A stretch of 64,000 nucleotides of DNA from a virus, in IMG/VR virus record IMGVR_UViG_3300012953_000013, positions 64,001 to 128,000 of that record. The stretch is one strand, 5' to 3'. Position 1 is the first letter of the stretch; each line of letters starts with the position of its first letter. Below, in pieces: positions 16,626 to 35,442 of this stretch. The notes under the pieces are model-generated. The model worked only from the letters and a program-made list of their open reading frames with translations. It had not been told where the DNA came from and made no database searches. The position numbers and the translations under genes are program-made.

Positions 16626-17183
16626 TCAGCTTTTAAGAGCGTTCCAAAGCTCCCACTCCAAACCAATCTCTTTCAAGTGATTCTTTATTTTCTTTTCTCT
16701 AGAAGACCAATCATTTCCCTTTAATTTTCTCGAATGCCACTCTATAAACAATTTATCTACTCTGTTTATTACGCCAGTCTCTATCAAATCTTCTAATACG
16801 ACATACTCAGCGCCCTCAATATCCAGTTTAAGATATATTAAGTCGTTTTCTTCTGTGTTGCTTGAAATAAAAGTAGACAATCTCACGGTCTCTACTTTAG
16901 AAGGATTTTTTCTATCTAGCTTTCCAGAATTTTTCTCAGCAATCAAAGTAGAGCCGCCAGAGCCCTTTCTTTTGTCTACCAAAAAATCCATTGTGCCGTC
17001 TTCATTCCAGACCGCTTTATTAATTAGTTCGTGATTTTTAAACCCTTCATACTTATTATTCCAAGCACTACGAGGTTCAAATGTTATTATACGAAAAGAT
17101 TTATCTTTGTCGTGATTTTTCCTAAAGTGTCTCACTGAACACCCGTTATTTCCACCTGCATCTATAAAAAATTTTCTCGACAT
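16626..17183 (-). CDS. FkbM-family SAM methyltransferase
   Basis: FIDAGGNNG, FEP, NKAVW, LKLDIEGAEY. Confidence 0.85.
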   Translation of the reverse strand: MSRKFFIDAGGNNGCSVRHFRKNHDKDKSFRIITFEPRSAWNNKYEGFKNHELINKAVWNEDGTMDFLVDKRKGSGGSTLIAEKNSGKLDRKNPSKVETVRLSTFISSNTEENDLIYLKLDIEGAEYVVLEDLIETGVINRVDKLFIEWHSRKLKGNDWSSREKKIKNHLKEIGLEWELWNALKS

Positions 17184-17587
17184 TAAAAAGCCCTGACTTT
17201 AATTCCAGATTTTTTTAGTATATCTACGCCAGACATATCTCTATAAGCTTCTTTATAGATAACTTCATCAATCCCTGAATTAACTATTGCTTTCGCGCAC
17301 ATTCTACACGGAGATAGTGTTAAATAAAGCTTTTTCTTCTTGGGATTATTATAATCTAGTTTTATTAAAGCGTTAATCTCAGCATGGAGCATTCCAGAAT
17401 TCCCAGGAACTTGTGATTCTACTTCATTGGGTCCGCCTGCATAGTTTCCATTGTATCCAATCGCTAAAACTTGGCAATTATCTTCAGTTACGATCACCGA
17501 TCCGACTTGAAATCTAGGGTCGTAAGACCTTTTAGCAATAGCGTGACAAAAGTCCATCCATATCTCATCCCAATTTGGTCGACTCAT
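17183..17587 (-). CDS. dCMP deaminase
   Basis: HAEINA and SPCRMCA zinc motifs, IGYNG. Confidence 0.9.
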   Translation of the reverse strand: MSRPNWDEIWMDFCHAIAKRSYDPRFQVGSVIVTEDNCQVLAIGYNGNYAGGPNEVESQVPGNSGMLHAEINALIKLDYNNPKKKKLYLTLSPCRMCAKAIVNSGIDEVIYKEAYRDMSGVDILKKSGIKVRAF

Positions 17588-17591
17588 TTTA

Positions 17592-18317
17592 TTAATCTCC
17601 TAAGTTCTCAAACTCGTAAGGGTACATTTTTAAAAATTTCAAATACTGCTGTTGAACCTTTTCTTTTTTTCGTTGGCCAGATTCTCCCATATAGTAAGTT
17701 GAATAGTGGCGACGATCTTTTCTAGTTTTTACCCATATTCCCCATTTTTTTAATTCTACGCGAGGGGCTTTAAGAATATACAATAACTCATTGAAGTCTT
17801 CTTCTAGATTCTCAAACCTTAAAGTATGATCTATACAGGGCTTACCATCTAGCAAATAATATTTCTGCCATGGCAAAAACCGGTCTTTAGTCTGAAAAGA
17901 ATTGTTGACGTGCTTTGGATCTTTATCGACAAGATTTTGCTTTTTGTTGCTCCACCAAAAAGAAGATACTTCTGCATCCCATGGATTTCTAATTACGGCA
18001 ACTTTCAGATAATCTTTCCAAACAGAGTTGCCCCATTTTTTCTTGAATCTCGTTTGCTTTAAGATATTTTGCACTTGCCTTGGTGACCAATGTTTACCGT
18101 AACGCTTTGCAAGAGCAAATGCATCTTCGTCAAAAGACTCTTTTTTTAAAGTTTCATAGTAACTTACATTGTCATAAATACTTTCAATATCTTTTTTATT
18201 CCTAAAACACCAGATGTCAGACCCAGCGCAAATCTCAGCTAAAGAAACTTGAACGCTAGTAGAACCTGTTTTTTGAGGATTAAAAAATATAAACTTGTAT
18301 TTGTGATTTACTATCAA
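17592..18317 (-). CDS. Sulfotransferase family protein
   Basis: FFNPQKTGSTSV (5'-PSB), IRNPWDAEVSSF (3'-PB), RFENLEEDF. Confidence 0.8.
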   Translation of the reverse strand: MIVNHKYKFIFFNPQKTGSTSVQVSLAEICAGSDIWCFRNKKDIESIYDNVSYYETLKKESFDEDAFALAKRYGKHWSPRQVQNILKQTRFKKKWGNSVWKDYLKVAVIRNPWDAEVSSFWWSNKKQNLVDKDPKHVNNSFQTKDRFLPWQKYYLLDGKPCIDHTLRFENLEEDFNELLYILKAPRVELKKWGIWVKTRKDRRHYSTYYMGESGQRKKEKVQQQYLKFLKMYPYEFENLGD

Positions 18318-19213
18318 CCCTTATCTACCTTCGGTTTAGAAGTCTTTGCTGCGCGGCGTTTTCGTGCAGTTTTTGGCTTGTCGAATAGGTCTTCCACATG
18401 CTGTCCTACTGGTAACTGGAATCCTGCAGCTTTTTTATGACCACCTCCGCCAAACCTCTTTGCTATTTCTGAAACATCAACAGTTTCGTGAAATGCCCTA
18501 AGACTTACTTTGGTTTCTCTTGCTTCATGGTCCCAATACCAAATCATTGCAAAATCTCAGTCTGGGCTTAACCTGGAGCCAATCTCTGACATCCAATGAG
18601 AGGCGTTTACAACCATAACATGCTTATCGTCCATTTTTCTATGAGAAGCTTTTTCGCATACTTTTTTAATAACTGTTTTTGAATATGCTAAAACATATGA
18701 TCCACGCTTTACTGCATCATCGAAAACTGAATCATCTTCAAATTTCTCAAACTCTTCAAACTCAAAAGGTACCATGTCAAACGCAGCAGCAAATTCTTTT
18801 GAATATGGAAGTTCCCACTTCCATAAATCTCTGTCCTCAATATAATTGATAAACTTTGGCGGCTCTTTTCCTGGGTGAAAAAAGTCCCACGCTAATCTAG
18901 CGCCTGAGTGCTTCATATCGAATATAGTGTTGCTGATATCGTGAAGTTCTACCACTGCAGATTTATGGTGGTCTATTACAATAAGCGCAGCAGCTTCCTC
19001 TATCATTTGTTTTGTTGTAGCGTTATCAAAAGAAAAATCTAAAATTGCTACATGCTTCCCTTTAATATCAGGGGGAGAGTCTCCATGCTTACAAGCATGA
19101 TACTCGGCTCTATTGCCAAGTAATTTCCATGCAGAATAAGCTGCACCGAATCCGTCAGTACAGTTAGCATGGTAAATTACGCAATCAATAAGTGATGGTT
19201 CTACTATAGGCAT
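18314..19213 (-). CDS. DHH/DHHA1 phosphoesterase interrupted by one in-frame TGA (18557-18559)
   Basis: YHANCTDG and IDHH in 18557..19213; SLR..FGGGGH..AAGF in 18314..18547; junction reads CCA GAC TGA GAT TTT GCA ATG in one frame. Confidence 0.8.
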
Positions 19214-19229
19214 TTTCTATCCATTGATT

Positions 19230-19637
19230 CTAGGTTTCAGTTTTTCGTCCATAGTCGTCAAACAACATTACACTTCCAGTATTAGAAGAACTTCCAATTT
19301 CAAAGACTTCGGAATCTTCTAATGCTGTAAGTCTATATGGACAACCAGACTGTATACAAAAAGAATCACCCTCTTTTAGATTAGTGCTATTAAAATCAGA
19401 TGGATACTTTTTGTGGGTAGAATTTTCATCTCCCCATAAAACTCTAACTCTACCGCGCCTAACTAAAAGAACTTCATCTTTTTGAAGATAATATTTCAGA
19501 CTAGTAGATTGGCCCTTGTTTAAGAGTAATACTTTTCCACAAACGCCTCTAAGAGATGCCCAAGAGATTTCATAACCCCAGGGTTTTTCTTCTTTAGAGT
19601 TTCTACCTCGCCAACAAGTTTTTGCTTCGTCGTTCAT
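19230..19637 (-). CDS. Cupin, mannose-6-phosphate isomerase type II C-terminal-like
   Basis: KPWGYE and G...SL.Y...KDE pattern; ATAATTA at 19650-19656 upstream. Confidence 0.65.
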   Translation of the reverse strand: MNDEAKTCWRGRNSKEEKPWGYEISWASLRGVCGKVLLLNKGQSTSLKYYLQKDEVLLVRRGRVRVLWGDENSTHKKYPSDFNSTNLKEGDSFCIQSGCPYRLTALEDSEVFEIGSSSNTGSVMLFDDYGRKTET

Positions 19638-19687
19638 AATACCGTCCCTTAATTATTTTATCAAAAATGTTAATTTTGTTTCGAATA

Positions 19688-20251
19688 TTAAGGGTTAAAG
19701 TGTAAAAAACACTTCGGCTGATACATTTCTGACCCACCGACTTCAATTTGATGGTCTGAACGACCTCCGATTTTTTTTGTATAGTGTGCATCTAATCCGC
19801 AGGTTGAACATACTGCAGGGCAAACTTCTATTTTGGTTGCATAGGGCATCATTTCTTGCATTTCTTTATAAGGAGTAAAATCAGAAGAAAGCTGCAGAGA
19901 AGAAGCTAAGATAGTATGACCCTCTTTGAACAAAGAAACCAGAACTTCTCCCACTCCATCTATCATAAAAGCTTCGTCGACAGCAATTACAAAAGTTTCG
20001 TCTTCTTCTTGCCAAGCTGTGGCTTCTCTCAAATACCTTAGCAGCTCTTTGCCATCACCAATCCTTTTGGCAGATAGTTTGCCGCCCCAATGAGTGACAA
20101 TTTCTTCTTTAGAATAACGCTCATCAACATTTGGTTTAAATGCCAATATATTTCTACCTTGGTATGTGTACCTGTCTATAGCGCTTAAAAGCTTTGTAGT
20201 TTTCCCTCCAAACATTGGACCCACAAATAGCGTAAATTCATTATTCATCAA
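19688..20251 (-). CDS. tdk: Thymidine kinase
   Basis: GPMFGGKTT P-loop, VDEA, CSTC and GG.E.YQPKC. Confidence 0.9.
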   Translation of the reverse strand: MMNNEFTLFVGPMFGGKTTKLLSAIDRYTYQGRNILAFKPNVDERYSKEEIVTHWGGKLSAKRIGDGKELLRYLREATAWQEEDETFVIAVDEAFMIDGVGEVLVSLFKEGHTILASSLQLSSDFTPYKEMQEMMPYATKIEVCPAVCSTCGLDAHYTKKIGGRSDHQIEVGGSEMYQPKCFLHFNP

Positions 20252-21233
20252 ACCCCCACCAAGAAAAAGTCTTTTCCAGACCGCTTATTAAACTATATTT
20301 TGGGAAGAACCCTAATTCTCTCTCTGCTTTTTTAGTACATGCTAAAGTGTGTTTTACGTCTCCAGGGCGAACTGGAGCATTTACAATCTCAACGCCAGGA
20401 AACTTTTCTTTAAAAATATCTAAAATATCATTATTTGAATAAGATTTTCCTGTACCTATATTAATTCTATCACCACAGAAATTTTGTTCACGAATAGCTG
20501 CTAAAATATTTGCCTCAGCAACATCTTCTACAAAAACCATATCTCTAGTTTGAGTGCCATCGCCATCACTTCTTAATGGCAAACCCTTTTTAACTTTATC
20601 GCACCAAGAAACAACAGCAGTCGAGTAAGGAGAATCACCGTATTGGTTAGGACCAAATACGTTAAAATATCTTAGACAAGCAATATCTAAATCATAGGCC
20701 TTAGAATAAAGCCGAGCCCATTCTTCTACATTTAATTTCTGAAGTGCATAAGGACTATTGGGATTTTTCCCGTGATCTTCTGTTGTGGGGAGAGACCACG
20801 GATCTCCATATACAGAGCAGCTTGAAGAAAATACGATCCTTTTGACATTTCCAATAGAGTGGGTAAACAATTGGATTGTTTTCATAAAATTTTCGTGTGT
20901 AGTTTCTACGGGATTCTGAATGGAGTACTCAACTCGGGGATTTGCAGCGCAGTGAAAAATCACGTCATATCTTTGGTCTACGATTCTTCTTATTACTTCT
21001 TGACTTACAAAATCTCCAACTAAAACTAAAATTTGGTCTGGAAAATTCTTGACTTGTTGTTCAAAAATATGCCCCATTTGAGTCGGTACTGTTCTAAAAG
21101 AGTGATCATCTAAGAAAGCATAATCACCATTCGACATGTCATCTACAATCTCAACTTCCCAGCCGTTATCTACTAATTTTTTTGAAATACATGACCCGAT
21201 AAATCCACAACCACCAGTTACAAGCGCTCGCAT
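20241..21233 (-). CDS. NAD-dependent nucleotide-sugar epimerase/dehydratase
   Basis: GGCGFIGS, SSS, YALQK (YxxxK), LRYFNVFGP, TRDMVFVEDVA. Confidence 0.9.
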   Translation of the reverse strand: MRALVTGGCGFIGSCISKKLVDNGWEVEIVDDMSNGDYAFLDDHSFRTVPTQMGHIFEQQVKNFPDQILVLVGDFVSQEVIRRIVDQRYDVIFHCAANPRVEYSIQNPVETTHENFMKTIQLFTHSIGNVKRIVFSSSCSVYGDPWSLPTTEDHGKNPNSPYALQKLNVEEWARLYSKAYDLDIACLRYFNVFGPNQYGDSPYSTAVVSWCDKVKKGLPLRSDGDGTQTRDMVFVEDVAEANILAAIREQNFCGDRINIGTGKSYSNNDILDIFKEKFPGVEIVNAPVRPGDVKHTLACTKKAERELGFFPKYSLISGLEKTFSWWGFDE

Positions 21234-22396
21234 AATACAATTTCCTCCTTCAAGTTATTTTGCATTAAAAAACTTTCTTCTGCCAATTCTAAACCGCCAT
21301 TTAAATATTCAACTACTTGAGTTGTCATATCTCGAGCTGTACATGTTGGAACATTTTGCGCTATTACATTCAACTGTTTTCTATCCGCCATTTCAAAATC
21401 ATGGGGTAAACCCATCATATGCAATAACTCTCTTATTGACATTCCTCTATCTTCTTTGGGATGAACAAGATGAGTAAGAGTTCTTCCAACTATTGCGTTT
21501 GTTCTGTTGTAGTAATATCCCGGAGAAGCGTCCATAAATCTTCCGCCAGACTGAACTTTTTTATAAATAGCTCGAAGCCTGCGATGTTCGGCAGTTTCTT
21601 CTATTCCTCTTTTCTCGATCCATTCAATACACTCTTTTAGTAATTCATTTTCAGCTAAATAAGAAAATATTGAATGAATAGAACCTGAGTCGTTATTTTT
21701 AACAAAATGCTCATGAGTTACACCTAGATGCTGTAATACAAAAGCATACGAATCAAAGTTTTCTGAAATTTTTCCTTCGATATTAAATTGATCTTGTAGT
21801 GAAGCTTCAGCTGGGATCTCTTCAATATAATCTGCAAAAGACGGCATTGGGGTATTGAAATAATTCAAGAGTGGCGGATTTGAATCTCTCCAGAAAAAAT
21901 AAAATGTCCTCACCCTTCTTTGCGGGATGCCATGACGCTGAGTATCTGTCTTATAGAGAGAAAAGGTGTATCCATGCTCTCTAGCTAGACCTTTTAATTT
22001 ATCTCGTACGTACGCGCCCGAATTTGTAAAAAGGCCGGGGGCATTCTCGCCCCAAAAAACTCTTGGACGAACCTGACCCAAAACGGTCCTTGCAGATTCA
22101 TACATCCAATAATTCTTTCCCTCTCTTGTATCTTTGCTTCTAGAAGTATTAAGCTGGCTCAGTCCAGCACATGGACAAACCGAATTTATAAAATCTATAT
22201 CACCACCAGGAATTTTGCCACCTTCATCTAAAACAATTCTTGGAACATCTTCCCAGTAATCTGTAAGATATTTTTCATTTGCTCCAAAAGCAGAATAACT
22301 TAAGTGGTATTCTGGTTTTTTATTTGTCGCTTTATAACACCCTATGGCGCTTCCTCCGACCAGAGGAATAATAGTTCCCCACTTTAAGTTATCCAT
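21218..22396 (-). CDS. C5-cytosine DNA methyltransferase-fold protein with degenerate SAM motif
   Basis: Motif IV CPCAGLS, VI ENAPGL, VIII GIPQRRVR, IX RELLHMMGLP; motif I reads IPLVGG rather than FxGxGG, motif X AQNVP. Confidence 0.75.
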   Translation of the reverse strand: MDNLKWGTIIPLVGGSAIGCYKATNKKPEYHLSYSAFGANEKYLTDYWEDVPRIVLDEGGKIPGGDIDFINSVCPCAGLSQLNTSRSKDTREGKNYWMYESARTVLGQVRPRVFWGENAPGLFTNSGAYVRDKLKGLAREHGYTFSLYKTDTQRHGIPQRRVRTFYFFWRDSNPPLLNYFNTPMPSFADYIEEIPAEASLQDQFNIEGKISENFDSYAFVLQHLGVTHEHFVKNNDSGSIHSIFSYLAENELLKECIEWIEKRGIEETAEHRRLRAIYKKVQSGGRFMDASPGYYYNRTNAIVGRTLTHLVHPKEDRGMSIRELLHMMGLPHDFEMADRKQLNVIAQNVPTCTARDMTTQVVEYLNGGLELAEESFLMQNNLKEEIVLCERL

Positions 22397-22397
22397 A

Positions 22398-23264
22398 TCA
22401 GTCTTCTTCCTTTATTGTATATCCGTATTCTTCAAAATCAACTTTATAATCTACTGCTAACATTTTTTTAATTTTTTCTGAAATGATATTCTCAGTTTTC
22501 ATGTAGCGTATTTTTACAATATTTGAATGAGGGAGAACAGAATCACTCGAAATTATATCTCTATCTTTGAGATCTTTTAATAGATTTTCAAGATCTTCAA
22601 ATTTATAAATTTTTGTTTCAGGAGAAACATACCATCGGCATGGGTTTCTCTGCACACCGCCTCGGCCAAGGTCTGCAGTATTTTTAAAGTAAAATTCTAA
22701 CTGAGCGCCTGGTTCCATATTTCGAAAATCTAAACCGGTTTTTTCATAAAAATTACGGATAGTATATAGAATTTGCGACTCCGCTCTCTGTTTTCCTGGC
22801 AGCTCTATTAGGCTTTCAATATATTTTTTAATTCCAGCATGAGCTTTTTCAACTGGGGCATCTCTAACAGAAACAAATTCGTCTTCATGCGATACTTCTA
22901 AGCCTAATCGATGAAAATGATCCATAAAGTATTTGTCGTCATATGATATTTGCCCCTTTAACATTTTCCACACAGGTTCAACTTCAGTTTCATAATAAAG
23001 GTAGTTAAACCACATATTAAAATGAGAAACAACTCTTGTGTAGGGATGCCTGACAACTGTAAAAGTAAAGCCTGCGTTAACTGCTTCTTTCCAGTCTCTC
23101 CAAACACTATATACTTGGTGTCCTCCACCCACAGGAAAGTAATCTGGTTCTTTTATCCTGGTCCAGCCATTTTCTTCAATTAATTTTCTGACAGACATAC
23201 CTCCACATTTTGGTATGTGGATAAAATGAATGGTCTCACCATTTCTTTCGTAGAGTGGCATCAA
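22398..23264 (-). CDS. Sulfotransferase family protein
   Basis: FIHIPKCGGMSV, VRHPYTRVVSHF. Confidence 0.8.
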   Translation of the reverse strand: MMPLYERNGETIHFIHIPKCGGMSVRKLIEENGWTRIKEPDYFPVGGGHQVYSVWRDWKEAVNAGFTFTVVRHPYTRVVSHFNMWFNYLYYETEVEPVWKMLKGQISYDDKYFMDHFHRLGLEVSHEDEFVSVRDAPVEKAHAGIKKYIESLIELPGKQRAESQILYTIRNFYEKTGLDFRNMEPGAQLEFYFKNTADLGRGGVQRNPCRWYVSPETKIYKFEDLENLLKDLKDRDIISSDSVLPHSNIVKIRYMKTENIISEKIKKMLAVDYKVDFEEYGYTIKEED

Positions 23265-24133
23265 TCACCAACCTTATAATCGAATAACGAATAGTCGTCA
23301 CCATATAAAAACAAAAATACACTTTGAAAGCTTTGTGAAAACTCGCTTAGTGAAAAAGATTCTTTTTTAGATAATGAATATAGCTTTTTATTCTCTACAG
23401 AGAGCCCACGCTTGTACGACTCTTGATTTATTATATTTTTTTCTAAAAGCCTCTCTAATAGATTTTCTTTTTCTTCTAATTTAAAAACTTCAACAGTGGG
23501 ATCTACATAAAGTCTAGAAGGAGTGGGATTACCACCCCCGTGATTTATTTTATGGAACTTATGTTTCAAAAAACTATATAAAAAATTCTCTAGAATAGAT
23601 GATGAATACTTTATGCCTGAAATTTCTTCCCAAGCTGCAGCTAAAACCCTATGTTTATGAATCATATTAGCGTTGCGATCTTCAGATATTAGAGTTGTCA
23701 ATTTCATAAAACTTTTTTGTAGTTCTTCTGGTTTTAAAATAATATCTTTAGGGTAAGAGATACCAAGTTCAGAAAACACTAAATCAATATAATTTAGAAT
23801 AACCCAGTTATATTCGTGCTCTATCCCGTTAATTTGCATCTCCAAAACTTCATATAATCTCTCCATGTAGAGATCACCGTTTGTAGACATCCACATATTG
23901 CAGTGAGATACGATCCTGTCAATCGGGTTTCTAACTAAAGTAAATTTAAATTCGCACTCTTGTATTGCAGGAAAATTTCCCCAACATATTCTCGGTACAT
24001 GCGGAATCCCGCCCACTTCTGCTGGCAAATACTCCCAGTTATTGTCTGTCAAAAGTTTTTTTACAGATGTACCGCCACATTTAGGGATATGAGCAAAAAA
24101 TATTTTTTCATTATCTCTAATAAACGTTGGCAT
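23261..24133 (-). CDS. Sulfotransferase family protein
   Basis: FAHIPKCGGTSV, VRNPIDRIVSH; tandem paralog of previous gene. Confidence 0.8.
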   Translation of the reverse strand: MPTFIRDNEKIFFAHIPKCGGTSVKKLLTDNNWEYLPAEVGGIPHVPRICWGNFPAIQECEFKFTLVRNPIDRIVSHCNMWMSTNGDLYMERLYEVLEMQINGIEHEYNWVILNYIDLVFSELGISYPKDIILKPEELQKSFMKLTTLISEDRNANMIHKHRVLAAAWEEISGIKYSSSILENFLYSFLKHKFHKINHGGGNPTPSRLYVDPTVEVFKLEEKENLLERLLEKNIINQESYKRGLSVENKKLYSLSKKESFSLSEFSQSFQSVFLFLYGDDYSLFDYKVGD

Positions 24134-25638
24134 TACAGTGCTCGATAAATTTTATCTTCTTTAGCGACGACTCCCTTTTTTACTAACTTCTGGAGAATCA
24201 TCCAACTTTCTTTCCAAGTTCCGTTTTGCTTATAGTGAACCAAACCCTTAGATTCAATTACCTTAGCAACCTCAGCGTGTTTACAAGCTCCACCAAGGCT
24301 ATTCATTATTGAAAGTATTTCAAGCTCTTTATTTGTAGCTGAAAAATCTAAACCAGTAGATTCAGACGGTGGTACAGTTGTCACTTCAGGACCTGAAGGT
24401 TCGGGGAGAGATTCTTGTTCCGGAACTTTTGATTCTAGGTCTGGAACACTATCTTCTTTCATAAATCCAAGCTTTTGCATTATGGATTTTGGCGTAATAA
24501 TCATTTTAACTTCCTCTTTTGAAATTGGGGCTGAAGCCCTTCGATTAGCAAGTTTCTTGTCTTCTCTAAGCTTTCTGTAAACACCAAACTGACAACAAGA
24601 AATTTCGCAACCAAAATTTGTAAAATATCCAAGCTCTGAAACTTTTTTCATATAGTAATCTGATTTATCAGAGCTCTTTAAATCAAAAAAACTGTTTTGA
24701 TGACGTCTTATAGCATTAATAAGCTTTTTTCCAACTTTGTCGTTAATCGAATGACCGCGATGTTCATAAAACCAGTTTATTGCATTCATCGCACCGACTC
24801 CAGGAACCACATAATCGTCATCTTCATCAATGTTTCCCGGCATTCCCTCAAATATTAAATTACCAACTTCTGGCATACGAGCCAAGTTACAGCTAAAGTG
24901 ATAACCGTAATAATTTCCAATCCCTTTATATGAATTTAGAAATTTAAATGACTCTTCCATCGTTGGCTTAGTTTTATAAAATTCAACCCATTGAGGGCCC
25001 AAAAAAGTAAACCAAAATAAAATATCTGATGGTCTAAGCATTCTTTTGGACCGATCGATGGCTGATGTTTTCTCCAAAATGTCAATTGGTGATCCTACAC
25101 TTCTAGCGTAGTTTCTAGCTGAGGTTTGTAAGCTGGTCCTAAGCTCAGTTGTTCCATAGATTTTTTCTTTATTTTTAACTACTTCTTCTATGTTTACGCA
25201 GAGTTTCTCTAGATATTTTGGATCATTGATAAACTTTTTATATACAACAAAATCATCTCCTGTACCCTCAACCATCATTTTAAGGGTCTTCGATGGCCCA
25301 TAGAATTTCACAATTGCAGCGTTAATAAGCTTATCTTCAAAAGTTGCTTTGGGGTTATAGAATAGGTTCTCGTTTAACCAGATAATCTCATCGTGAAAGC
25401 TACGGTTAGGGTGGAAGTAGGGAACTGACTTTCCATCAACTATAAACCCAAGCTTATACAAAAGAACTTTGTTTGGTTCGTGTTGAAACGTATCAAATGT
25501 GCAAGACTTTGCAAACCTAACAAGATATTCTCTTCGATTCAACTCTTTAATAAAATGAACAAAATCATCTTTCTTATACTGAGGGATTTCATCGAAGAGT
25601 TCTTCGTCTGTATATTTTAAAAGCTCTCTATTGCTCAT
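24133..25638 (-). CDS. 5-hmdU DNA kinase helical / aGPT-Pplase1-like protein with C-terminal winged-helix-like domain
   Basis: YFHPNRSFHDEIIWL, GIGNYYGYHFSCNL, VVPGVGA..AINWFY, FGCEISCCQFGVY match the family pattern as I recall it; Pro/Glu linker then wHTH-like tail. Confidence 0.65.
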   Translation of the reverse strand: MSNRELLKYTDEELFDEIPQYKKDDFVHFIKELNRREYLVRFAKSCTFDTFQHEPNKVLLYKLGFIVDGKSVPYFHPNRSFHDEIIWLNENLFYNPKATFEDKLINAAIVKFYGPSKTLKMMVEGTGDDFVVYKKFINDPKYLEKLCVNIEEVVKNKEKIYGTTELRTSLQTSARNYARSVGSPIDILEKTSAIDRSKRMLRPSDILFWFTFLGPQWVEFYKTKPTMEESFKFLNSYKGIGNYYGYHFSCNLARMPEVGNLIFEGMPGNIDEDDDYVVPGVGAMNAINWFYEHRGHSINDKVGKKLINAIRRHQNSFFDLKSSDKSDYYMKKVSELGYFTNFGCEISCCQFGVYRKLREDKKLANRRASAPISKEEVKMIITPKSIMQKLGFMKEDSVPDLESKVPEQESLPEPSGPEVTTVPPSESTGLDFSATNKELEILSIMNSLGGACKHAEVAKVIESKGLVHYKQNGTWKESWMILQKLVKKGVVAKEDKIYRAL

Positions 25639-26047
25639 GCAAATCCTCTAAGTGCCTTCTGTTTTCTTTAGCAACGTGAGGGTTGTTAACATGAATCACT
25701 TTCGTTCCAATATTCCAGGTTTCTACTTCATTTAATTTTCTTTCTATCTCAGCTTTTTGAACTTCATCATCTTCAAAAAAATATTGAACGCTGAGTCCTG
25801 CTCTATGGAGAATCTTAATAGTTTCTCCTTTGTGCCACCCTGAACTCTGACGAGTTTTTTCTGAGTAGTCACATTGATTAAAGAAAACTGGGTTATTAAT
25901 TCCATTACGACGAAGAAAAGCCAAAGTTTCAGCTTCTTCTTCATAACTACGACCAGTGATAATTACATCTCCTGGGCCTGGACGAATTCCACAAACTCCA
26001 TCGCCAAGATGGATAACGCCATCAATATCAAAACCGTTAACCTTCAT
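25628..26047 (-). CDS. Small capless HAD phosphatase
   Basis: FDIDGV, ITGR, HK, FEDD. Confidence 0.8.
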   Translation of the reverse strand: MKVNGFDIDGVIHLGDGVCGIRPGPGDVIITGRSYEEEAETLAFLRRNGINNPVFFNQCDYSEKTRQSSGWHKGETIKILHRAGLSVQYFFEDDEVQKAEIERKLNEVETWNIGTKVIHVNNPHVAKENRRHLEDLHEQ

Positions 26048-26756
26048 TGAATTCTCCTCTTTTTCTTATAAAAAACTGAGTGCCTAAAATCATCATGTCT
26101 AAAGACCTTGTGTCACACCAAACCCTATAATGAGGAGATAGAGCCTGGCCGTTTCCTGGGTTGAGCATTTCGCTTAAACCAATTAGTTTCGTATTCCCAG
26201 TCTTCCAAGCAATTAAAGTATTCTCGTGTGGAGGAGTCAAACCAATAGACATTGCAAATTGATTGACTGCTTCTACAGCTCCCCAATCTGATTTTTGTGT
26301 ATAATCATCTCCAGTTATCCAACCGCCCGGCTTAAGTTTTGGCCACCAACTCTCAAGATCTATTTTTACAGCTTCATACCTATGGTCGCCATCAATGTAA
26401 ATCCAGTCAAAATAATTGTTAGAAAAATTCTTAGCAGCGTTTTCAGAAAAATCTCTGTATACAGAAATCTTGGTTTCATCGCTGCTCATCTCATCAGCCC
26501 AATTTTTTACTTTTTGAAACCTAGCATCTTGTTCTTCTTGAGAGTCTTTTGCGTGTTGGTCGTGCTGATCTGTTTGCTGCACCCAAGGGTCTACTAAGTG
26601 AATTTCTGACGGGTTTTTGGAAAAAATCTTGCGAGAAAATGCGCCATTGAAAACACCTATTTCTGCACACTTAGCTCCCTGGGCTATTTTTTCTAAAACC
26701 CTGTCTTCGTAGACTCTTTCTCCTGGATTTTCTTTTTTGAAATTATCTCTAAGCAT
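26037..26756 (-). CDS. Class I SAM methyltransferase (Methyltransf_24-like)
   Basis: AEIGVFNG, VDPW, YIDGDHRYEAV..DL..W..L.PGG.I.GDDY. Confidence 0.85.
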   Translation of the reverse strand: MLRDNFKKENPGERVYEDRVLEKIAQGAKCAEIGVFNGAFSRKIFSKNPSEIHLVDPWVQQTDQHDQHAKDSQEEQDARFQKVKNWADEMSSDETKISVYRDFSENAAKNFSNNYFDWIYIDGDHRYEAVKIDLESWWPKLKPGGWITGDDYTQKSDWGAVEAVNQFAMSIGLTPPHENTLIAWKTGNTKLIGLSEMLNPGNGQALSPHYRVWCDTRSLDMMILGTQFFIRKRGEFNEG

Positions 26757-27468
26757 TATCTTTCCTAAAGAAAGTATAGTCTAAAACTTTCGTTGTTCCA
26801 TACATTAAAATTGGATGTTCTACCTTCTTCCACTTAGACTCTGGAAAAAACAGACTAGGATATTGATCAAAAGGAGAACGAGTGTTATGAAATTCAATGC
26901 CAACAATTTCAACAAAATCCGGAATTTTTGGAATAGAATCTAGGATATCGTACTCTTTGCCTTCAATATCAATCTTTAATATTTCTGGTCGGTATTTTTC
27001 TAAAAGACTAGAAAAAGAAATCCCGGGGACTGAAATAGTAGTAGAAGATGCATTCCTTCTCCGAAGAGTTGATGAAGAAACAGAATTACGCTTGGATTTA
27101 GCGTAGTGAAAAACTACTTCATTTTCATCTTCTTCACACACTGCGGCGTTAATACACTCTACACCCGGGGCATTAATTTCCAAAAGTTGAAAATTATGAG
27201 GGCAGGGCTCGAGTGCAATAATCTTCTTTGCGCCGTTATCCAAACACATCTTAGCAAATCCACCAATATTGGCCCCAAGGTCTAATACGGTTTTGCCTTC
27301 AACTGGAATGCATGTGTAATTGTCTATACACTCCTTAATTGAACTCAAATCAAATGTATCGGGACGATACCACATCCCTTTTCTTGAGTTCCATTTTATT
27401 TCGCACTCTTCGAAGGCTGGTACAGCTGGATTAAACCGCATGCCCGTCTGTTCGTGGATTTTAGCCAT
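26749..27468 (-). CDS. FkbM-family SAM methyltransferase
   Basis: VLDLGANIGGF, LEP, NAAV, LKIDIEGKEY. Confidence 0.85.
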   Translation of the reverse strand: MAKIHEQTGMRFNPAVPAFEECEIKWNSRKGMWYRPDTFDLSSIKECIDNYTCIPVEGKTVLDLGANIGGFAKMCLDNGAKKIIALEPCPHNFQLLEINAPGVECINAAVCEEDENEVVFHYAKSKRNSVSSSTLRRRNASSTTISVPGISFSSLLEKYRPEILKIDIEGKEYDILDSIPKIPDFVEIVGIEFHNTRSPFDQYPSLFFPESKWKKVEHPILMYGTTKVLDYTFFRKDNA

Positions 27469-28658
27469 TAATCTACCTCTTTGTTATGAGATGGACAAAT
27501 CTTATAAAGCTCTTCAGCGTCGTAAGAAGATGTCTGCCTCTTTGTGAATCTGGTTAATTGTCGCTCTGAAAGTGCATCACATTCATAAAGCGTTTCGCTA
27601 AACATAAGTTGTTGTGGAGGAGTTTTTTGCGTAAATGCTGACGGGCCTCGAAGAGCACCAACAATCCCCATTTCTCTAGCGGTCTTGAGATAACGAACTG
27701 CATCAATAACAACTCCGCCAGAGTTTGGAGAATCAATTACAGAGAGTCGAGCATCAAAAGTTACCGGAGCGCCAAGAAACCCTTCCATCTCTACTCTAAA
27801 ATTAGCAACCTTGTTATCTCCATAATAGCGAATGTATTCTGAAGGTCCCGCATGGAGAAATGACTCATCTGGGTCGACTCCCCGAATTACATGTTGAGAG
27901 CGAATAACGTTTTCCTTAGATACCTTTTTATACTTGAGGCGCGATTGATCGACCATGTTCAAGAAATCAGTGTTTCCGCCAACATTTCTCTGAATATGAG
28001 CTTTAACATTTAAGCCGCGAGCAAAGGCCAGTTCTTGTAGCATTTGAGAAAGAATAGAAGCTCCAAACTGTGATTTCATATCATCACCAATTAATGGAAT
28101 TCCAGCATCGATAAACTTTTGTTCCCACTCTGGATTAGAAGCAATAAATACGGGAATGCAGTTTAGTAGAGAAACACCAGCATCTAGACAAGCTTGGGCG
28201 TAATACTCTGTAGCTTTCTGAGACCCAACTGGAAGATAATTGATTAGAATATCAACCTTGCGATCTTCTAGTATCTGAACCACATCTACGGGCTCTTCAT
28301 TTGAAACTCTGAAGGCTTCATCATCTGGATAATCACTCATCAAGCTTGGTACCCCATCAAGCACTGGACCCATTTGAACTATTGGACCATCAGGTACATT
28401 CGCTTCGTATTCTGGAGTACAGTTTGGCTTAGCCCACATTGCTTCCCTAAAACACTTACCGACTTTTCGCTTATCTACGTCAAATGCAGCCACAACCTCA
28501 ATATTCGCAACTGAGTATCCGCCAATTCGAGACTTCATTACTCCGTCTCTTTCTTGGCCGGCTGTATATCCAGCATAGTATGTTAAACCTTGATAAAGCG
28601 AATTTGCGCAGTTTCCGACGCCTACAATTGCTACTCTAATATTTTGCTTTTTACTCAT
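27468..28658 (-). CDS. ino1: Inositol-3-phosphate synthase (MIPS)
   Basis: VAIVGVGNCA, FDVD..KVG, NYLPVGS, NCIPVFIAS, GDDMKSQFGA, GGNTDFLNM, SK..SK, DSPNSGGVVIDAVR. Confidence 0.93.
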   Translation of the reverse strand: MSKKQNIRVAIVGVGNCANSLYQGLTYYAGYTAGQERDGVMKSRIGGYSVANIEVVAAFDVDKRKVGKCFREAMWAKPNCTPEYEANVPDGPIVQMGPVLDGVPSLMSDYPDDEAFRVSNEEPVDVVQILEDRKVDILINYLPVGSQKATEYYAQACLDAGVSLLNCIPVFIASNPEWEQKFIDAGIPLIGDDMKSQFGASILSQMLQELAFARGLNVKAHIQRNVGGNTDFLNMVDQSRLKYKKVSKENVIRSQHVIRGVDPDESFLHAGPSEYIRYYGDNKVANFRVEMEGFLGAPVTFDARLSVIDSPNSGGVVIDAVRYLKTAREMGIVGALRGPSAFTQKTPPQQLMFSETLYECDALSERQLTRFTKRQTSSYDAEELYKICPSHNKEVD

Positions 28659-28681
28659 TAATTCTTTCTCCTAATTTAGAA

Positions 28682-29746
28682 TTATTCTTTATTATGTCGC
28701 GGGTTGGGTTGATTGTTAAATAAATCCCAGTAATAAGACATCGGACTCAAATGAACACTTTTTGGGCGTTCCATATATTCAAAATCAAGCTCCCCCGATT
28801 CATTCAAAAATCCCGGTGGCCACTCAAAAGTTTGCCACTTATTCTCTATTGATATTTTATCAACAGCAGCATTAAATGTATTGACTAACTTTGTTCTTTC
28901 TTCCCAAGTTCCAAAATATGGAGTCTTCTTATAATATCCAGTTTTAGGGAGCTTTCTAGAAATATTTTCTATTGGAAGAGCATGAACAATCTCAACGTTT
29001 GGAACTCCAAGAGACTTAAGCTGGTGCCCGAGCTCGATTCCCATCGCGTGGGCTTTCTCAAACGGGTTTTCTTGCCTCATGAGGTGATGGCGAATATCAA
29101 TATTCCCCATATAGAAAGTCAAGTGAGTCAAATCGCTTACTTTCATACCAGATTTTTCTTCAATAATTTCTTTTACACCGTCGCGTATAGTAGAAAAAAG
29201 AGTAAGGCCATCATTTCGGCATACAGAATAACCGGGTTTCCAAGTAGAAAAACAATGGCTATCTCCGAAACAAAGTTTTGTAGTTTCTTCAACATGATTA
29301 AACCCCGGAGTTCTTTTACAAATTTCATCAAGCTTGTTTAAGTCTAGCTGGCCGACATTAGCACTTGTGGATTTATTATGCAATCTTCCCCTGATGGTCG
29401 TTCCAATGAGCGGCATCTCATGATTCATAATGTACGTGGGGCCAGAAAACTCTTGAATTCTCTTGAATCTACGAACTACGTTATCGTCGACGCCAAAGAA
29501 AAAGTTAATTGTGCCAGCATAAGCAATCCCGGGATAAAAAATCATGGCATCATACCCTTCATAGGTATCATGGTTTCCAAGAATAGTTACGTCTGTCCAG
29601 CCTGATGAATGGAGCATATTTTTATAAAGCCATACCCAAGCTGCATTGTGGCTATGCTTTCGGGTTGGAATATTTCGCTCTAGTCCATCAATTCCGATCT
29701 TAGCATCTTTTGGAAGATCTGATGCGACTTCTAAAAATGTTTTCAC
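28682..29746 (-). CDS. Uncharacterised phage protein: beta-glucosyltransferase-like N-domain plus SGNH-like C-domain (tentative)
   Basis: GTG 29746 after CAGGAG RBS; N-part KIGI..YDAMIF..TINFFFG; C-part GDSH, GNID, SVH. Confidence 0.5.
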   Translation of the reverse strand: MKTFLEVASDLPKDAKIGIDGLERNIPTRKHSHNAAWVWLYKNMLHSSGWTDVTILGNHDTYEGYDAMIFYPGIAYAGTINFFFGVDDNVVRRFKRIQEFSGPTYIMNHEMPLIGTTIRGRLHNKSTSANVGQLDLNKLDEICKRTPGFNHVEETTKLCFGDSHCFSTWKPGYSVCRNDGLTLFSTIRDGVKEIIEEKSGMKVSDLTHLTFYMGNIDIRHHLMRQENPFEKAHAMGIELGHQLKSLGVPNVEIVHALPIENISRKLPKTGYYKKTPYFGTWEERTKLVNTFNAAVDKISIENKWQTFEWPPGFLNESGELDFEYMERPKSVHLSPMSYYWDLFNNQPNPRHNKE

Positions 29747-29747
29747 A

Positions 29748-30188
29748 TTAAACTCCTGTGCTGCCAAAGCCGCCAGCACCACGGGTTGTAGTTGAATAAA
29801 AAAGCTCTTTATCTGGCACTACTTTTACATCAGGATACTTGACTGGCAACAATAAAAATTGAACAATTTTTTCTCCTCCCTCTAAAGCTACCGGCTCTGT
29901 ACCAGAATTCATGAGGTGCAGATGAATTTCGCCCTGGTAGTCTTCATCAACGACGCAAGCTCCCACTGTTAACTTCTTTTTCAGAGCTACGCCACTCTTG
30001 TTGTGAGCTACAAAAGCGTAGCCTTTAGGGACATTAACTCTGATTCCAGATGGAATACAGACGTCTCCTCCTGGAGGCACGCTTGCTGATAAGCCATCAG
30101 GTACATAAAAGTCTAGACCTGCAGATCCAGGGGTTCCTCGAGTCGGCGTCTTTACTTCTCTAGTTTTTGACATTTTTATGTTTTTCAT
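29748..30188 (-). CDS. dut: Trimeric dUTPase
   Basis: SAGLDF, KSG, VVDEDYQGE, KIVQ, RGAGGFGSTG. Confidence 0.95.
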   Translation of the reverse strand: MKNIKMSKTREVKTPTRGTPGSAGLDFYVPDGLSASVPPGGDVCIPSGIRVNVPKGYAFVAHNKSGVALKKKLTVGACVVDEDYQGEIHLHLMNSGTEPVALEGGEKIVQFLLLPVKYPDVKVVPDKELFYSTTTRGAGGFGSTGV

Positions 30189-30190
30189 TT

Positions 30191-30421
30191 TTACCCCAAC
30201 TTTGATTCTGCGGCTTCTACCATTTCTCCAAGACTGTCGTCTGAAACATCCAGCCTAGACTTAATCTTAGCAATACTAATTGCCGCTTTTACAGCTTTGA
30301 TGTCTAGCTTAGACTTATAATCATCAAATAGCTGCTTCTGCTCTTCTGCAAGAAGCTGCTTTTCCCCATCAATTCTCATAAGCTGTTCTACCAAATCTTT
30401 AATATCGTCTTGTACGCTCAT
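30191..30421 (-). CDS. GapR/DUF2312-like small DNA-binding protein
   Basis: IKDLVEQL.RI..EK..L.EE.KQLF..YK...D.KA.K pattern. Confidence 0.5.
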   Translation of the reverse strand: MSVQDDIKDLVEQLMRIDGEKQLLAEEQKQLFDDYKSKLDIKAVKAAISIAKIKSRLDVSDDSLGEMVEAAESKLG

Positions 30422-30431
30422 TATTTTCTCC

Positions 30432-30614
30432 TTATTGAAACTTTACGTAATCTTTAAGCAAACTGTCAATGCTTTTAATAACTTGTTCACAAAGCACTGA
30501 AGTATGCTTCGTATTCATAACTGAAGTTGAAGAATGCTTCTCTTCAAGCCCATCATAGAATTCAATAACGTGCCTTCGAAGCTTCACCAACTTTTCAATC
30601 TCTTCATTTTTCAT
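30432..30614 (-). CDS. Small hypothetical protein
   Basis: ATG 30614 (MKNEEIEKLVKL) after AGGAG RBS. Confidence 0.55.
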   Translation of the reverse strand: MKNEEIEKLVKLRRHVIEFYDGLEEKHSSTSVMNTKHTSVLCEQVIKSIDSLLKDYVKFQ

Positions 30615-30888
30615 TACTTCTCCTTTTTTCATTGATGTAATTTTGCCATCCCCCAATATAAGCAACAGCGTCTAGTAAATTGTCTTCTTTAAAATTGTAA
30701 GACTGCCTAGAAAACTTGAGAGCAATCATGGCGATAAACATATCGTCCGCGGTCCAGTTTCGACCTGACATCCCACTAGCAATCATTGCAGCGCGCTCAA
30801 AACCTTCGCCCAAGGGACCATATTGACGCTCTTTTTCTTCTGAGCGATTATTGATTATTTCATCTGCTTGTTTTAGAATATTAGCCAT
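30604..30888 (-). CDS. DUF6378-like small helical protein (possible nucleotide pyrophosphohydrolase)
   Basis: A..I...R.....YG......A..........M.ALK..R......DN..D...Y pattern. Confidence 0.6.
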   Translation of the reverse strand: MANILKQADEIINNRSEEKERQYGPLGEGFERAAMIASGMSGRNWTADDMFIAMIALKFSRQSYNFKEDNLLDAVAYIGGWQNYINEKRRSNEK

Positions 30889-31750
30889 TGAAAATAACTC
30901 CCTTTATTTTGTTTACGTGATCAAATATTTCAGATTTTTCCATATCACTAGATGGAAGCTCTGCTGACAAAGATAAAAGCTTTTTATAAGTTAGATCTGG
31001 CTTTAAAACCGTTTTATCAGTTTGGGGATAATGACCACCCAAAACGCTTACATAATAATTGTCTAAAATCTTATCCATCATCTTAAAGTGTCTCTCATAA
31101 ATGTGAAAACTTCCTGCATTATGATAATATGTCCCAAGATGGAGATTCATGCCGTGATCGTTTAAGTGATTAAGCATCAACTGTTGAAAAAGAGCGAATG
31201 TAAAAACATCGTTGCAAAAACCAAAAATGGCATCATTAGATCTCATATAGACGCCCATATCCAAAACACCTTCTCTTATAAAAAACTGAATATATTGAGT
31301 ACATGGATAATCTTTAGAATTTTTTTCTTTATGATATGGCTGGTTAATTGCTATAGTTGCTCTCCTGGTGTCTGGATCGCTTACTAGCTCATTTACAACC
31401 CAATTCCATTGAGAAATATACATTTTGTTCAAAACAGGAAAAATATAAGACCCATAATTTGACTCTGCTTCGCCAAATTGGTCTTGGATATCAGCCCAAA
31501 TAGATGCAAGCTTAGATATGTTGTTTACTTTTTGGTTTGAAGATACGTACCAAAGCCACTCTGCAATAGCATAATTTATGTTAAATTTTCGAGCAGGAAC
31601 AATAATATCTAGCTGTTCAGGGTTCTTAATTTGAAAGGAAACAAATGTTCTTTCTAGCTGTTTAGAGCCCCTAGAATGAACTATATTTCCGGCCATTTTT
31701 AGTTTAGCTAGCTCTTCAACGAAAGCTTCATTTAGATTATAGTACATCAT
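30881..31750 (-). CDS. Thymidylate-synthase-fold dCMP hydroxymethylase-like enzyme
   Basis: AEWLWY, SNYG, RRA, PCT, RSNDAIFGFCND, GSFHIYERH; Asp at the base-specificity position as in T4 gp42; ATG 31750 after AGGTGG. Confidence 0.8.
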   Translation of the reverse strand: MMYYNLNEAFVEELAKLKMAGNIVHSRGSKQLERTFVSFQIKNPEQLDIIVPARKFNINYAIAEWLWYVSSNQKVNNISKLASIWADIQDQFGEAESNYGSYIFPVLNKMYISQWNWVVNELVSDPDTRRATIAINQPYHKEKNSKDYPCTQYIQFFIREGVLDMGVYMRSNDAIFGFCNDVFTFALFQQLMLNHLNDHGMNLHLGTYYHNAGSFHIYERHFKMMDKILDNYYVSVLGGHYPQTDKTVLKPDLTYKKLLSLSAELPSSDMEKSEIFDHVNKIKGVIFNG

Positions 31751-31766
31751 TTTTACCACCTATAGA

Positions 31767-31794
31767 ATCATACTAAAATTTACGTAATTGTTCA
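31767..31794 (-). promoter_or_regulatory. TGAACA-N16-TATGAT promoter heading the modification operon
   Basis: Same spacing as four other DNA-metabolism promoters. Confidence 0.65.
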
Positions 31795-35387: not shown

Positions 35388-35414
35388 ATGTCTCTCTTGA
35401 TAATGTATAGTTCT

Positions 35415-35442
35415 ATTATAACACACTGAGACGTATTTTTCA
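35415..35442 (-). promoter_or_regulatory. TGAAAA-N16-TATAAT promoter of dnaE
   Basis: Consensus -10 at 35415-35420, element at 35437-35442. Confidence 0.7.

Follow-up and report, generated by a model that had tools for sequence, protein, structure and literature searches.

In this work, we analyzed a row of 22 open reading frames (ORFs) that follow one another in unbroken succession on the minus strand, from position 31759 to position 16626, of a 64,000-nucleotide stretch of DNA from an uncultured large phage (the window; positions 64,001 to 128,000 of the IMG/VR record IMGVR_UViG_3300012953_000013, which is 184,866 bases long and has a CheckV completeness of about 71%). Judging by predicted folds, motifs, gene fusions and co-occurrence across phages, the row is probably a DNA hypermodification locus acting on 5-hydroxymethylcytosine (5hmC), with inositol-decorated 5hmC as the best reading. 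This decoration is a prediction from the genes. An initial annotation had proposed that hydroxymethylated cytosine is incorporated into DNA, activated there, coupled to inositol and then methylated, sulfated or acylated. The cytosine type of its thymidylate synthase (TS) homolog, the gene module and the link of myo-inositol-phosphate synthase (MIPS) and a HAD-type phosphatase to DNA modification held up, while activation on DNA, a likeness to β-glucosyltransferase (BGT) and a single promoter found no clear support. The genes on which the argument turns are the following, and four of them (those for the SGNH protein, MIPS, the HAD phosphatase and the helical protein) form the core module:

30881-31759, minus strand: TS homolog of the dCMP hydroxymethylase (T4 gp42) type (Pfam PF00303, 82 bits)
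28682-29782, minus strand: two-domain SGNH protein of 366 aa, referred to as N17781 (PHROG 17781 and 13881)
27468-28658, minus strand: MIPS of the Ino1 type (Pfam PF01658, 79 bits)
26749-27468, minus strand: FkbM-family O-methyltransferase (Pfam PF05050; TIGR01444, 83 bits)
25628-26047, minus strand: minimal HAD-type phosphatase of about 135 aa, a constant partner of MIPS (PHROG 415, E 2.8e-8)
24133-25638, minus strand: helical protein of 501 aa resembling DNA-base enzymes, referred to as C17781 (Pfam PF18723; HMUDK_hel, aGPT-Pplase clade 1)

The nature of the modified base can be read from the TS homolog, the likely start of which is the ATG at 31750, preceded by GGTGG. When aligned with E. 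coli ThyA, T4-type gp42 and RB69 gp48, this protein keeps Cys146, Arg166 and Ser167 (E. coli numbering) and has Asp at positions 143, 169 and 177, as does T4-type gp42, whereas RB69 gp48 has Asn169. Replacement of Asn177 by Asp is associated with cytosine preference and dCMP as substrate, replacement of Leu143 by Asp or Glu with water access and a hydroxymethyl product, and replacement of Asp169 by Asn with the 5-hydroxy-dCMP synthase branch represented by RB69 gp48 and DLP3 gp80 (PMC13326640). The three Asp residues thus lead one to expect 5-hydroxymethyl-dCMP, and not 5-hydroxy-dCMP, as the product, in agreement with the cytosine-type enzyme of the initial annotation. Asp169 is kept in the window protein, as well as in the TS homologs of 18 further loci that carry the module. 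5-Hydroxycytosine chemistry was considered as a candidate and was rejected, as Asn169 is absent.

Loci related to the row were collected with a profile of the helical-protein family, as a search with the single helical-protein sequence returned nothing, and companion genes were scored by tblastn. Across the 62 viral loci so obtained, MIPS and the SGNH protein are each present in 61, the HAD phosphatase, adjacent to MIPS, in 58, FkbM in 45 and DUF6378 in 44; the sole locus lacking the SGNH protein is truncated on that flank. MIPS lies at a median distance of 1.2 kb from the helical protein, and no farther than 1.5 kb in 61 of the 62 loci. The module is found, in several gene orders, on the DnaE lineage to which the window belongs, on T4-like backbones (loci L033, L036, L037 and others) and in a group with a split PolB (L034). 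In some loci, the TS gene is not near the module but elsewhere in the genome, and every TS that was checked presents the gp42 signature. The co-occurrence of MIPS, HAD, SGNH-like and HMUDK_hel-like genes, to which the initial annotation had pointed as a way of checking its proposal, is found almost without exception across unrelated phages. What sets the window apart is its DnaE backbone, which is not T4-like, its sulfotransferase-like genes and a tailoring set larger than any other encountered in this analysis.

Fusions also connect these proteins. The SGNH and helical proteins are joined in Aeromonas phage 31 (795 aa) and in L037 (791 aa), while in L033, a T4-like contig, the helical protein is fused to FkbM (P0092, 720 aa). 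The L033 genes, including this fusion and a HAD-like ORF, can be translated only when TGA is read as Trp, and this phage may thus be recoded. In another T4-like version of the module (L036:6446-8515), NTP_transferase-like and PNP_UDP_1 phosphorylase-like genes precede HAD and MIPS, and two conserved genes of 263 and 328 aa without known function flank the SGNH and C5-cytosine methyltransferase-like genes.

These arrangements bear on the question of whether the row serves one function or two. In the latter case, the TS, SGNH and helical proteins would modify 5hmC with some other group, while the remaining genes of the same early-gene block (MIPS, HAD, the methyltransferases and sulfotransferases, the short-chain dehydrogenase/reductase (SDR) and the cupin) would make a free methylated or sulfated cyclitol or sugar, which might, for example, be an osmolyte or a signal, decorate the host envelope or form a virion glycan. 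We consider such a division rather unlikely, although FkbM, Sulfotransfer_2 and GalE-like enzymes more commonly have sugars, lipids or glycans as substrates. The close spacing of MIPS and the helical protein, at most 1.5 kb in nearly all loci and on several backbones, the fusion of FkbM to the helical protein and the lack in the row of any glycosyltransferase, lipid-related or export gene all speak against it. Further evidence on both sides comes from phages in which only part of the module is found.

When retrieval was started from MIPS, contigs without the helical protein were also obtained. In L026, the gene order is PolA, HMUDK_hel (E 9e-43), a P-loop 5-hydroxymethyldeoxyuridine (5-hmdU) kinase, ADDT, FkbM, MIPS, HAD, TS and MazG, and the TS has Asp143 and Asn177, corresponding to the dUMP hydroxymethylase type; the L027 and L028 clusters are similar. 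ADDT-subfamily homologs adjoin MIPS and HAD in a T7-like contig, and in contig L108, MIPS and HAD lie beside Tet_JBP, ADDT and a P-loop kinase. In the cultured Caulobacter phage Cr30 (L002:3703-12596), Tet_JBP, ADDT (E 1e-52), a TAGT-like gene, MIPS, HAD and a P-loop kinase stand side by side. This Cr30 cluster is unannotated, its oxygenase gene (Tet_JBP, E 8e-21) being listed as a 'putative SNF2 DNA repair protein'. Given these clusters, the inositol kit is thus wired to three routes that make hydroxymethylpyrimidines. The possibility raised in the initial annotation, namely that MIPS does not co-occur with DNA-acting genes, is at odds with the presence of MIPS and HAD inside thymidine hypermodification clusters as well, and their insertion there between ADDT and the kinase or TS genes also argues against a division of the row into two functions. 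In one thymidine-type cluster, a TET-associated glycosyltransferase (L028:9108-10037; PF20691, E 1.7e-8) lies between ADDT and MIPS, such that some versions of the cluster may add a sugar as well.

The Menderaviruses of Stenotrophomonas have MIPS and HAD but no helical protein, as two separate functions would allow; however, the pair again lies within a DNA-modification cluster, between FolE and the QueC/DpdA genes of 7-deazaguanine modification. In Stenotrophomonas phage Marzo (L001:8101-13624), for example, MIPS and the mini-HAD gene lie between GTP cyclohydrolase and the QueC/DpdA genes, which hints that a cyclitol may be linked to deazaguanine bases also.

Aeromonas phages 31 and 44RR2.8t present the reverse case and likewise favor two functions. 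Their ORF233c products, the closest cultured relatives of the module enzymes (31% identity for the SGNH and 42% for the helical protein, fused in 795 aa), occur without MIPS or HAD. Indeed, PHROG 17781 is this 795-aa family of Aeromonas T4-like phages, with the N-terminal half matching the 366-aa protein of the window and the C-terminal half the 501-aa protein. Adjoining the fused gene of phage 31 is ORF234c (L006:6286-7809), which encodes a full-length Na+/solute symporter closest to the Vibrio sugar transporter vSGLT (E 9e-104); it is in any case unusual for a phage to encode an importer of sugars or polyols. Both phages have gp42 and gp56 but no glucosyltransferase (PMC2993671). With either a symporter or MIPS beside the enzyme pair, a free sugar or polyol co-substrate that is imported in one case and made in the other would explain both arrangements.

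The helical protein matches PF18723 with 26.3 bits (cut-off 25; E 5.7e-6; profile positions 57-250 of 281), as compared with 141 bits for PaMx11 gp50, used as a control, and in precomputed tables PF18723 is assigned to most of its homologs. By sequence, the protein would thus be a distant PF18723 member. It gives no PF18724 match in Pfam at E up to 5, and profile comparisons of its family by hhalign with PUGT (E 0.34), with the ADDT (PF18724) alignment (E 0.23), and with an HMUDK_hel protein and a single ADDT protein are not significant; likewise, the family profile finds no PDB sequence at E up to 10. As far as sequence can tell, it is thus outside the ADDT family.

More can be learned from the predicted structure. 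The AlphaFold (AF2) model (pLDDT 87) comprises an all-helical domain (residues 1-390), a disordered linker and a winged helix (residues 436-501). In a Foldseek search of BFVD, the best match after Aeromonas ORF233c is the helical part of the SP10 5-hmdU DNA kinase (E 2.6e-4), and probabilities of about 1.0 are obtained for SP10, for the PF18723 proteins of PhiW-14, phiRSL1 and Lucky3, and for entries named 'Pplase1 clade 1'. In the PDB, Foldseek matched the winged helix alone, for which VIA gives Z of about 10 to winged helix-turn-helix proteins. VIA aligns the model with PUGT (8z2m_A), the 5-PmdU glycinyltransferase of PaMx11, at Z 9.2 (rmsd 4.5 over 229 residues), a score in the range of arrangements common among helical proteins, and with the glycosylase-like DUF2419 at Z 9.1.

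Within the helical domain, Glu345-x3-Cys349 is invariant in 37 homologs. The spacing Glu345-x3-Cys349-Gln-Phe parallels Glu243-x3-Cys247-Lys-Trp of PUGT and the invariant Glu250-x3-Cys254-Glu-Tyr of ADDT, although this is a match of motifs and not a residue-by-residue superposition. Such a Glu/Cys pair is needed for transferase activity in M6 gp51 and ViI gp247 (PMC8989533).

The initial annotation had described this protein as 5-hmdU-DNA-kinase-like. The helical domain is indeed there, whereas the P-loop kinase is not. A kinase search of the viral record (PF18748, and tblastn with the PaMx11 and L026 kinases), family searches for PF18724 and thymidylate kinase, and tblastn with PaMx11 gp45-50 and the kinase, helical and ADDT proteins of L026 all returned nothing, although in a record that is about 71% complete this does not demonstrate absence. 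Thus, no enzyme can be named for the activation on DNA that had been proposed.

The SGNH protein was modeled with a pLDDT of 89.7 and consists of a Rossmann-like N-domain (about residues 28-165), which belongs to no assignable family, and a C-domain (residues 166-366) with the SGNH hydrolase/acyltransferase fold. The C-domain matches SGNH folds in the PDB (Foldseek E 1.4e-4, probability 1.0) and, with VIA Z values of 10-12.8, many SGNH esterases, O-acetyltransferases and PatB/OatA. Gly173-Asp174-Ser175-His176, Asn227 and His344, corresponding to the block I Ser, block III Asn and block V His, do not vary among 36 sequences. An Asp is usually found three residues ahead of the His but is missing here, the window protein having Lys341. 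The protein-atlas search with the N-domain gave no usable match. An ESM Atlas fold search returned unnamed viral clusters only. Of the BGT-N/SGNH-like character assigned initially, the SGNH fold is borne out by the model, while the BGT likeness comes down to a weak hhalign match to the N-domain of T4 BGT (E 0.0073, probability 5%, 46 columns), in which GTxNxFGG lies over SSINFFGG of BGT. Two-domain SGNH proteins of PHROG 13881/17781 are found in more than 800 clusters in metagenomes.

MIPS matches Ino1 (PDB 1GR0) over residues 6-352 with E 1.3e-90 and TIGR03450 with 344 bits, below the equivalog cut-off of 638. Its second-best solved relative is the five-membered cyclitol-phosphate synthase 6K96 (E 1.9e-52). 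For the HAD protein, pairwise alignment with three distant homologs shows conservation of the motifs FDIDGVI, ITGR and FEDD. The HAD phosphatase of the initial annotation is thus backed by motifs and PHROG 415 but not by Pfam, where Hydrolase_6 is reached with E 0.17 only.

The 6K96 match raises another explanation, according to which the module does not modify DNA but serves the nucleotide pool or the synthesis of a small nucleoside-like compound, such as hydroxymethyl-cytidine or a carbocyclic nucleoside, along the lines of MilA and Ari2 in the pathways of nucleoside antibiotics. The resemblance of the TS homolog to CMP/dCMP hydroxymethylases would also fit. We nonetheless find this explanation highly improbable, as MIPS is far closer to Ino1, the relatives of the helical protein act on bases in polymeric DNA and the protein itself bears a winged helix, the module is placed among replication genes, and a gp42-type signature together with dUTPase and dCMP deaminase makes up the classic set for cytosine replacement.

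Beyond these core genes, the row contains candidates for tailoring and related enzymes:

26037-26756, minus strand: class I methyltransferase (Methyltransf_24, TylF-like; Pfam PF13578, 66 bits)
23261-24133, minus strand: sulfotransferase-like protein a (Pfam PF03567, Sulfotransfer_2, 38.5 bits)
22398-23264, minus strand: sulfotransferase-like protein b (Pfam PF03567, 25.0 bits), a paralog of a (30% identity, E 9e-26)
21218-22396, minus strand: C5-cytosine DNA methyltransferase homolog (Pfam PF00145, 69 bits, from residue 58)
20241-21233, minus strand: extended SDR, a GalE-like NAD-dependent epimerase/dehydratase (Pfam PF01370, 159 bits; TIGR01179, 171 bits, below cut-off)
19230-19637, minus strand: small cupin, weak (Pfam Cupin_1, 18.7 bits, below cut-off), conserved in the lineage
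18314-19213, minus strand: split phosphoesterase, with DHH at 18557-19213 (23.8 bits, below cut-off) and DHHA1 at 18314-18547 (35.9 bits)
17592-18317, minus strand: third, weak sulfotransferase-like ORF (Pfam PF03567, 20.3 bits over the full length, below the cut-off of 22), specific to this phage
16626-17183, minus strand: second FkbM-family methyltransferase (Pfam PF05050, 48.5 bits; PHROG 8156), specific to this phage

The C5-methyltransferase homolog, which is present in the T4-like L036 group too, keeps PCAGLS, GENAPG, PQRRVRTFYF and AQNVP across 11 family members, while motif I for S-adenosylmethionine binding (FxGxGG) is degenerate, the N-terminus reading IPLVGGS; this is the degenerate enzyme that had been recognized initially. 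If C5 is already substituted genome-wide, there is little substrate left for its usual reaction. The degenerate motif, along with the marginal Pfam score of the helical protein, could be taken to mean that the DNA carries plain 5hmC or 5-methylcytosine only and that the helical, SGNH and C5-methyltransferase-like proteins are inactive relics, regulators or DNA binders. This is very unlikely given the strong purifying conservation of the helical and SGNH families, which at 40-80% identity have 73 and 41 invariant columns, respectively, the candidate Ser/Asn/His and Glu/Cys residues among them, and the recurrence of the module on different backbones.

The matches of sulfotransferase-like proteins a and b cover only the N-terminal third of Sulfotransfer_2 (cut-off 22 bits), and both paralogs contain motifs for binding 3'-phosphoadenosine-5'-phosphosulfate (PAPS), namely PKCGG(T/M)S (5'-PSB) and R-x-P-x-x-R-x-V-S (3'-PB). 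Sulfotransferases are absent from all relatives examined, and the family search of the record revealed no phage APS kinase, subject to the same incompleteness of the record. The Methyltransf_24 gene is inserted at its site in this phage only and is absent there from relatives. At the same cluster positions, relatives have other methyltransferases or a weak sulfotransferase-like ORF, which is what one would expect where tailoring genes vary. That the adduct is methylated, sulfated and acylated, as initially foreseen, has gene position as its one basis and could not be upheld at the strength first given to it. The DHH and DHHA1 parts of the phosphoesterase are two adjacent ORFs (218 and 77 aa), an arrangement that is kept in the lineage. 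NrnA-type DHH enzymes degrade pAp, a by-product of sulfotransferases; the pair occurs also in relatives without sulfotransferases.

The rest of the row consists of genes for nucleotide metabolism and of small ORFs:

30604-30888, minus strand: DUF6378 protein (Pfam PF19905, E 1.4e-10), a frequent companion of the module
30432-30665, minus strand: 77-aa ORF of no family, not found in relatives
30191-30421, minus strand: GapR-like DNA-binding protein (Pfam PF10073, 25 bits)
29748-30188, minus strand: trimeric dUTPase, possibly also dCTP-directed (Pfam PF00692, 81 bits; weak DCD match; TIGR00576, 107 bits)
19688-20251, minus strand: thymidine kinase (Pfam PF00265, 115 bits)
17183-17587, minus strand: dCMP deaminase (Pfam PF00383, 79 bits)

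The GapR-like protein has no tblastn match in related loci and is specific to this phage. In the ORF listing, the row is tightly packed, with most junctions overlapping by 1-16 nt or less than 25 nt apart and the widest gap being 50 nt at 19637/19688. The co-oriented row and its junctions are thus as initially described, except that it counts 22 ORFs instead of about 21. Pfam, PHROGs or NCBIfam confirmed the TS, DUF6378, dUTPase, MIPS, FkbM, class I methyltransferase, sulfotransferase and C5-methyltransferase genes named then; the GapR-like, GalE-like SDR, thymidine kinase, cupin, split DHH/DHHA1, dCMP deaminase, third sulfotransferase-like and second FkbM genes had not been listed. By megablast, the whole row has no match in cultured phages.

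Two features lie directly upstream of the row:

31797-35426, minus strand: DnaE-type (Pol III alpha) polymerase gene, matched by tblastn to phage Pol III alpha genes
31767-31794, minus strand: promoter-like site TGAACA-16-TATGAT (9/12 match), between the DnaE and TS genes

The DnaE gene ends 38 nt upstream of the row on the same strand, and this neighbor is kept in the lineage (synteny across L007-L020). Promoter-like matches number 64 in the region as compared with 54 +/- 7 in shuffles, meaning that there is no excess. With DnaE directly upstream on the same strand and such sites at shuffle level, a single dedicated promoter at 31767-31794, as had been proposed, cannot be demonstrated. A single-promoter operon was thus rejected as a description of the row, the 9/12 site being no commoner in the region than in shuffles.

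Returning to inositol-decorated 5hmC as the probable product, the pathway could run as follows. By the signature of the TS homolog, dCMP would be turned into 5-hydroxymethyl-dCMP and 5hmC would enter DNA at replication, with dUTPase, dCMP deaminase and thymidine kinase managing the nucleotide pools. By family, MIPS is predicted to cyclize glucose-6-phosphate to inositol phosphate, from which the HAD phosphatase would free the cyclitol, most likely myo-inositol. Fold, motif, fusions and co-occurrence suggest that the SGNH and helical proteins then act jointly on a 5hmC base that is flipped out of the helix. With its winged helix anchoring it to DNA, the helical protein may attack C6 of the pyrimidine through its Cys to generate an exocyclic methylene, as in aGPT-Pplase2/AADT. 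Addition of a cyclitol hydroxyl to this methylene would yield an ether-linked inositol-5-methylcytosine. In place of the missing kinase, the SGNH protein might install a leaving group by acyl transfer, which is a guess. FkbM would subsequently O-methylate the adduct, as its position suggests and as the fusion and its presence in 45 of the 62 loci strengthen. In this phage alone, and judging by position, the second FkbM protein, Methyltransf_24 and up to three PAPS-type sulfotransferase-like proteins may tailor the adduct further. The expected effect would be protection of the phage DNA from host nucleases. The complete chemistry, that is, ether-linked myo-inositol on the cytosine 5-methylene, O-methylated and O-sulfated, and formed independently of a kinase through SGNH activation and substitution by a PF18723-like Cys enzyme, is unlikely to be correct in every detail and is put forward tentatively.

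Several points weigh against the pathway and need to be considered. The tie of the helical protein by sequence is to PF18723 alone, at 26.3 bits, with the PUGT, HMUDK_hel and ADDT profile comparisons not reaching significance, and its structural Z of 9 is within the range in which VIA warns of common arrangements. PF18723 proteins that stand alone have no known activity, and M6 gp55 is dispensable in vitro (PMC8989533). No activating kinase was found in the incomplete record, and the leaving-group role of the SGNH protein, as noted, is a guess. The identity of the cyclitol is not fixed, as 6K96 is second-closest to MIPS, and in the Aeromonas phages the SGNH and helical pair evidently does not need MIPS. 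Only this phage has the sulfotransferases and extra methyltransferases, which nothing but their position ties to DNA, and the search for a phage APS kinase gave nothing. Finally, many of the 62 loci come from few lineages and should not be counted as 62 independent events, although at least three backbones are represented.

Comparison with known systems shows where the proposed scheme is conventional and where it is not. As in the thymidine pathways of M6, ViI, PaMx11, PhiW-14 and SP10 (PMC8989533, PMC11472151), a TS-superfamily hydroxymethylase supplies the hydroxymethylpyrimidine, a helical, glycosylase-like Glu-x3-Cys enzyme is predicted to work post-replicatively on a base that has been flipped out, the donor is a free small molecule (the serine hydroxyl used in ViI shows that oxygen nucleophiles are employed) and variable tailoring enzymes follow. 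Those pathways differ in starting from uracil, through a dUMP hydroxymethylase, whereas the base here is cytosine (gp42-type TS); in place of a P-loop kinase and PF18724 protein, neither of which was found, the row has divergent PF18723-like and SGNH proteins. Their donor genes encode PLP, radical-SAM or FAD enzymes, while those of the row are MIPS and HAD, and sulfotransferase-like genes are present here. Cr30 likewise has MIPS (46% identity) and HAD (50%) among enzymes for hydroxymethylpyrimidines in DNA, but takes the thymine route, with a TET/JBP oxygenase, a kinase and a genuine PF18724 transferase, and lacks SGNH and PF18723-like proteins.

With T-even glucosylation of 5hmC (gp42, gp56 and the alpha- and beta-glucosyltransferases), the row shares identical TS specificity residues and pool enzymes, as well as, in the proposed scheme, decoration of the hydroxymethyl group after replication, the resemblance between the SGNH N-domain and BGT being weak and unproven. 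Unlike the T-even case, the row lacks a GT-B glycosyltransferase and nucleotide-sugar logic, the apparent donor being a free cyclitol made by the phage. As in the arabinosyl-5-hydroxycytosine systems of RB69 and DLP3 (PMC13326640), a TS homolog encoded among the replication genes of a large phage lies beside genes that make the sugar used for decoration; their TS, however, has Asn169 and yields 5-hydroxy-dCMP, which is decorated through UDP-arabinose and glycosyltransferases, whereas Asp169 is found here. The logic could thus be that of thymidine hypermodification, applied to cytosine by another pair of enzymes and with a cyclitol as donor.

Some observations were made outside the row. Just downstream, a 906-aa ORF (13799-16519) belongs to no Pfam family and is matched in tblastn by none of 50,697 phage records, and the ORF at 12649-13365 contains the C-terminal domain of Fe/Mn superoxide dismutase (66 bits). 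At a distance of a few kb from the row, there are genes for an Fpg/Nei-type glycosylase (38814-39629) and an HhH-GPD glycosylase (40779-41255), and in the L034 group, an HhH-GPD gene adjoins DUF6378. In a phage with modified DNA, such glycosylases may police unmodified or host DNA.

To our knowledge, the groups described so far on hypermodified pyrimidines of phage DNA are sugars (added by glycosyltransferases), amino acids, polyamines, and small amines or ethers. When the literature was searched for inositol in connection with hypermodified DNA, 5-hmdU or hydroxymethylcytosine, incidental mentions only and no inositol-bearing DNA base came up, in line with the statement in the initial annotation that none was known to it. 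If the proposed reading is true, cyclitols would join the modifications of DNA as a new chemical class, and the product would be the first natural DNA base to bear a cyclitol and the first to be sulfated, with sulfate esters adding fixed negative charge to the major groove. A cytosine route that proceeds without kinase and AADT would thus give a first function to two widespread viral families, namely the two-domain SGNH proteins of PHROG 13881/17781 and the divergent branch of PF18723. Such bases bear on resistance to restriction and CRISPR, on host range in phage therapy, on sequencing bias in viromes and on enzyme tools for tagging 5hmC.

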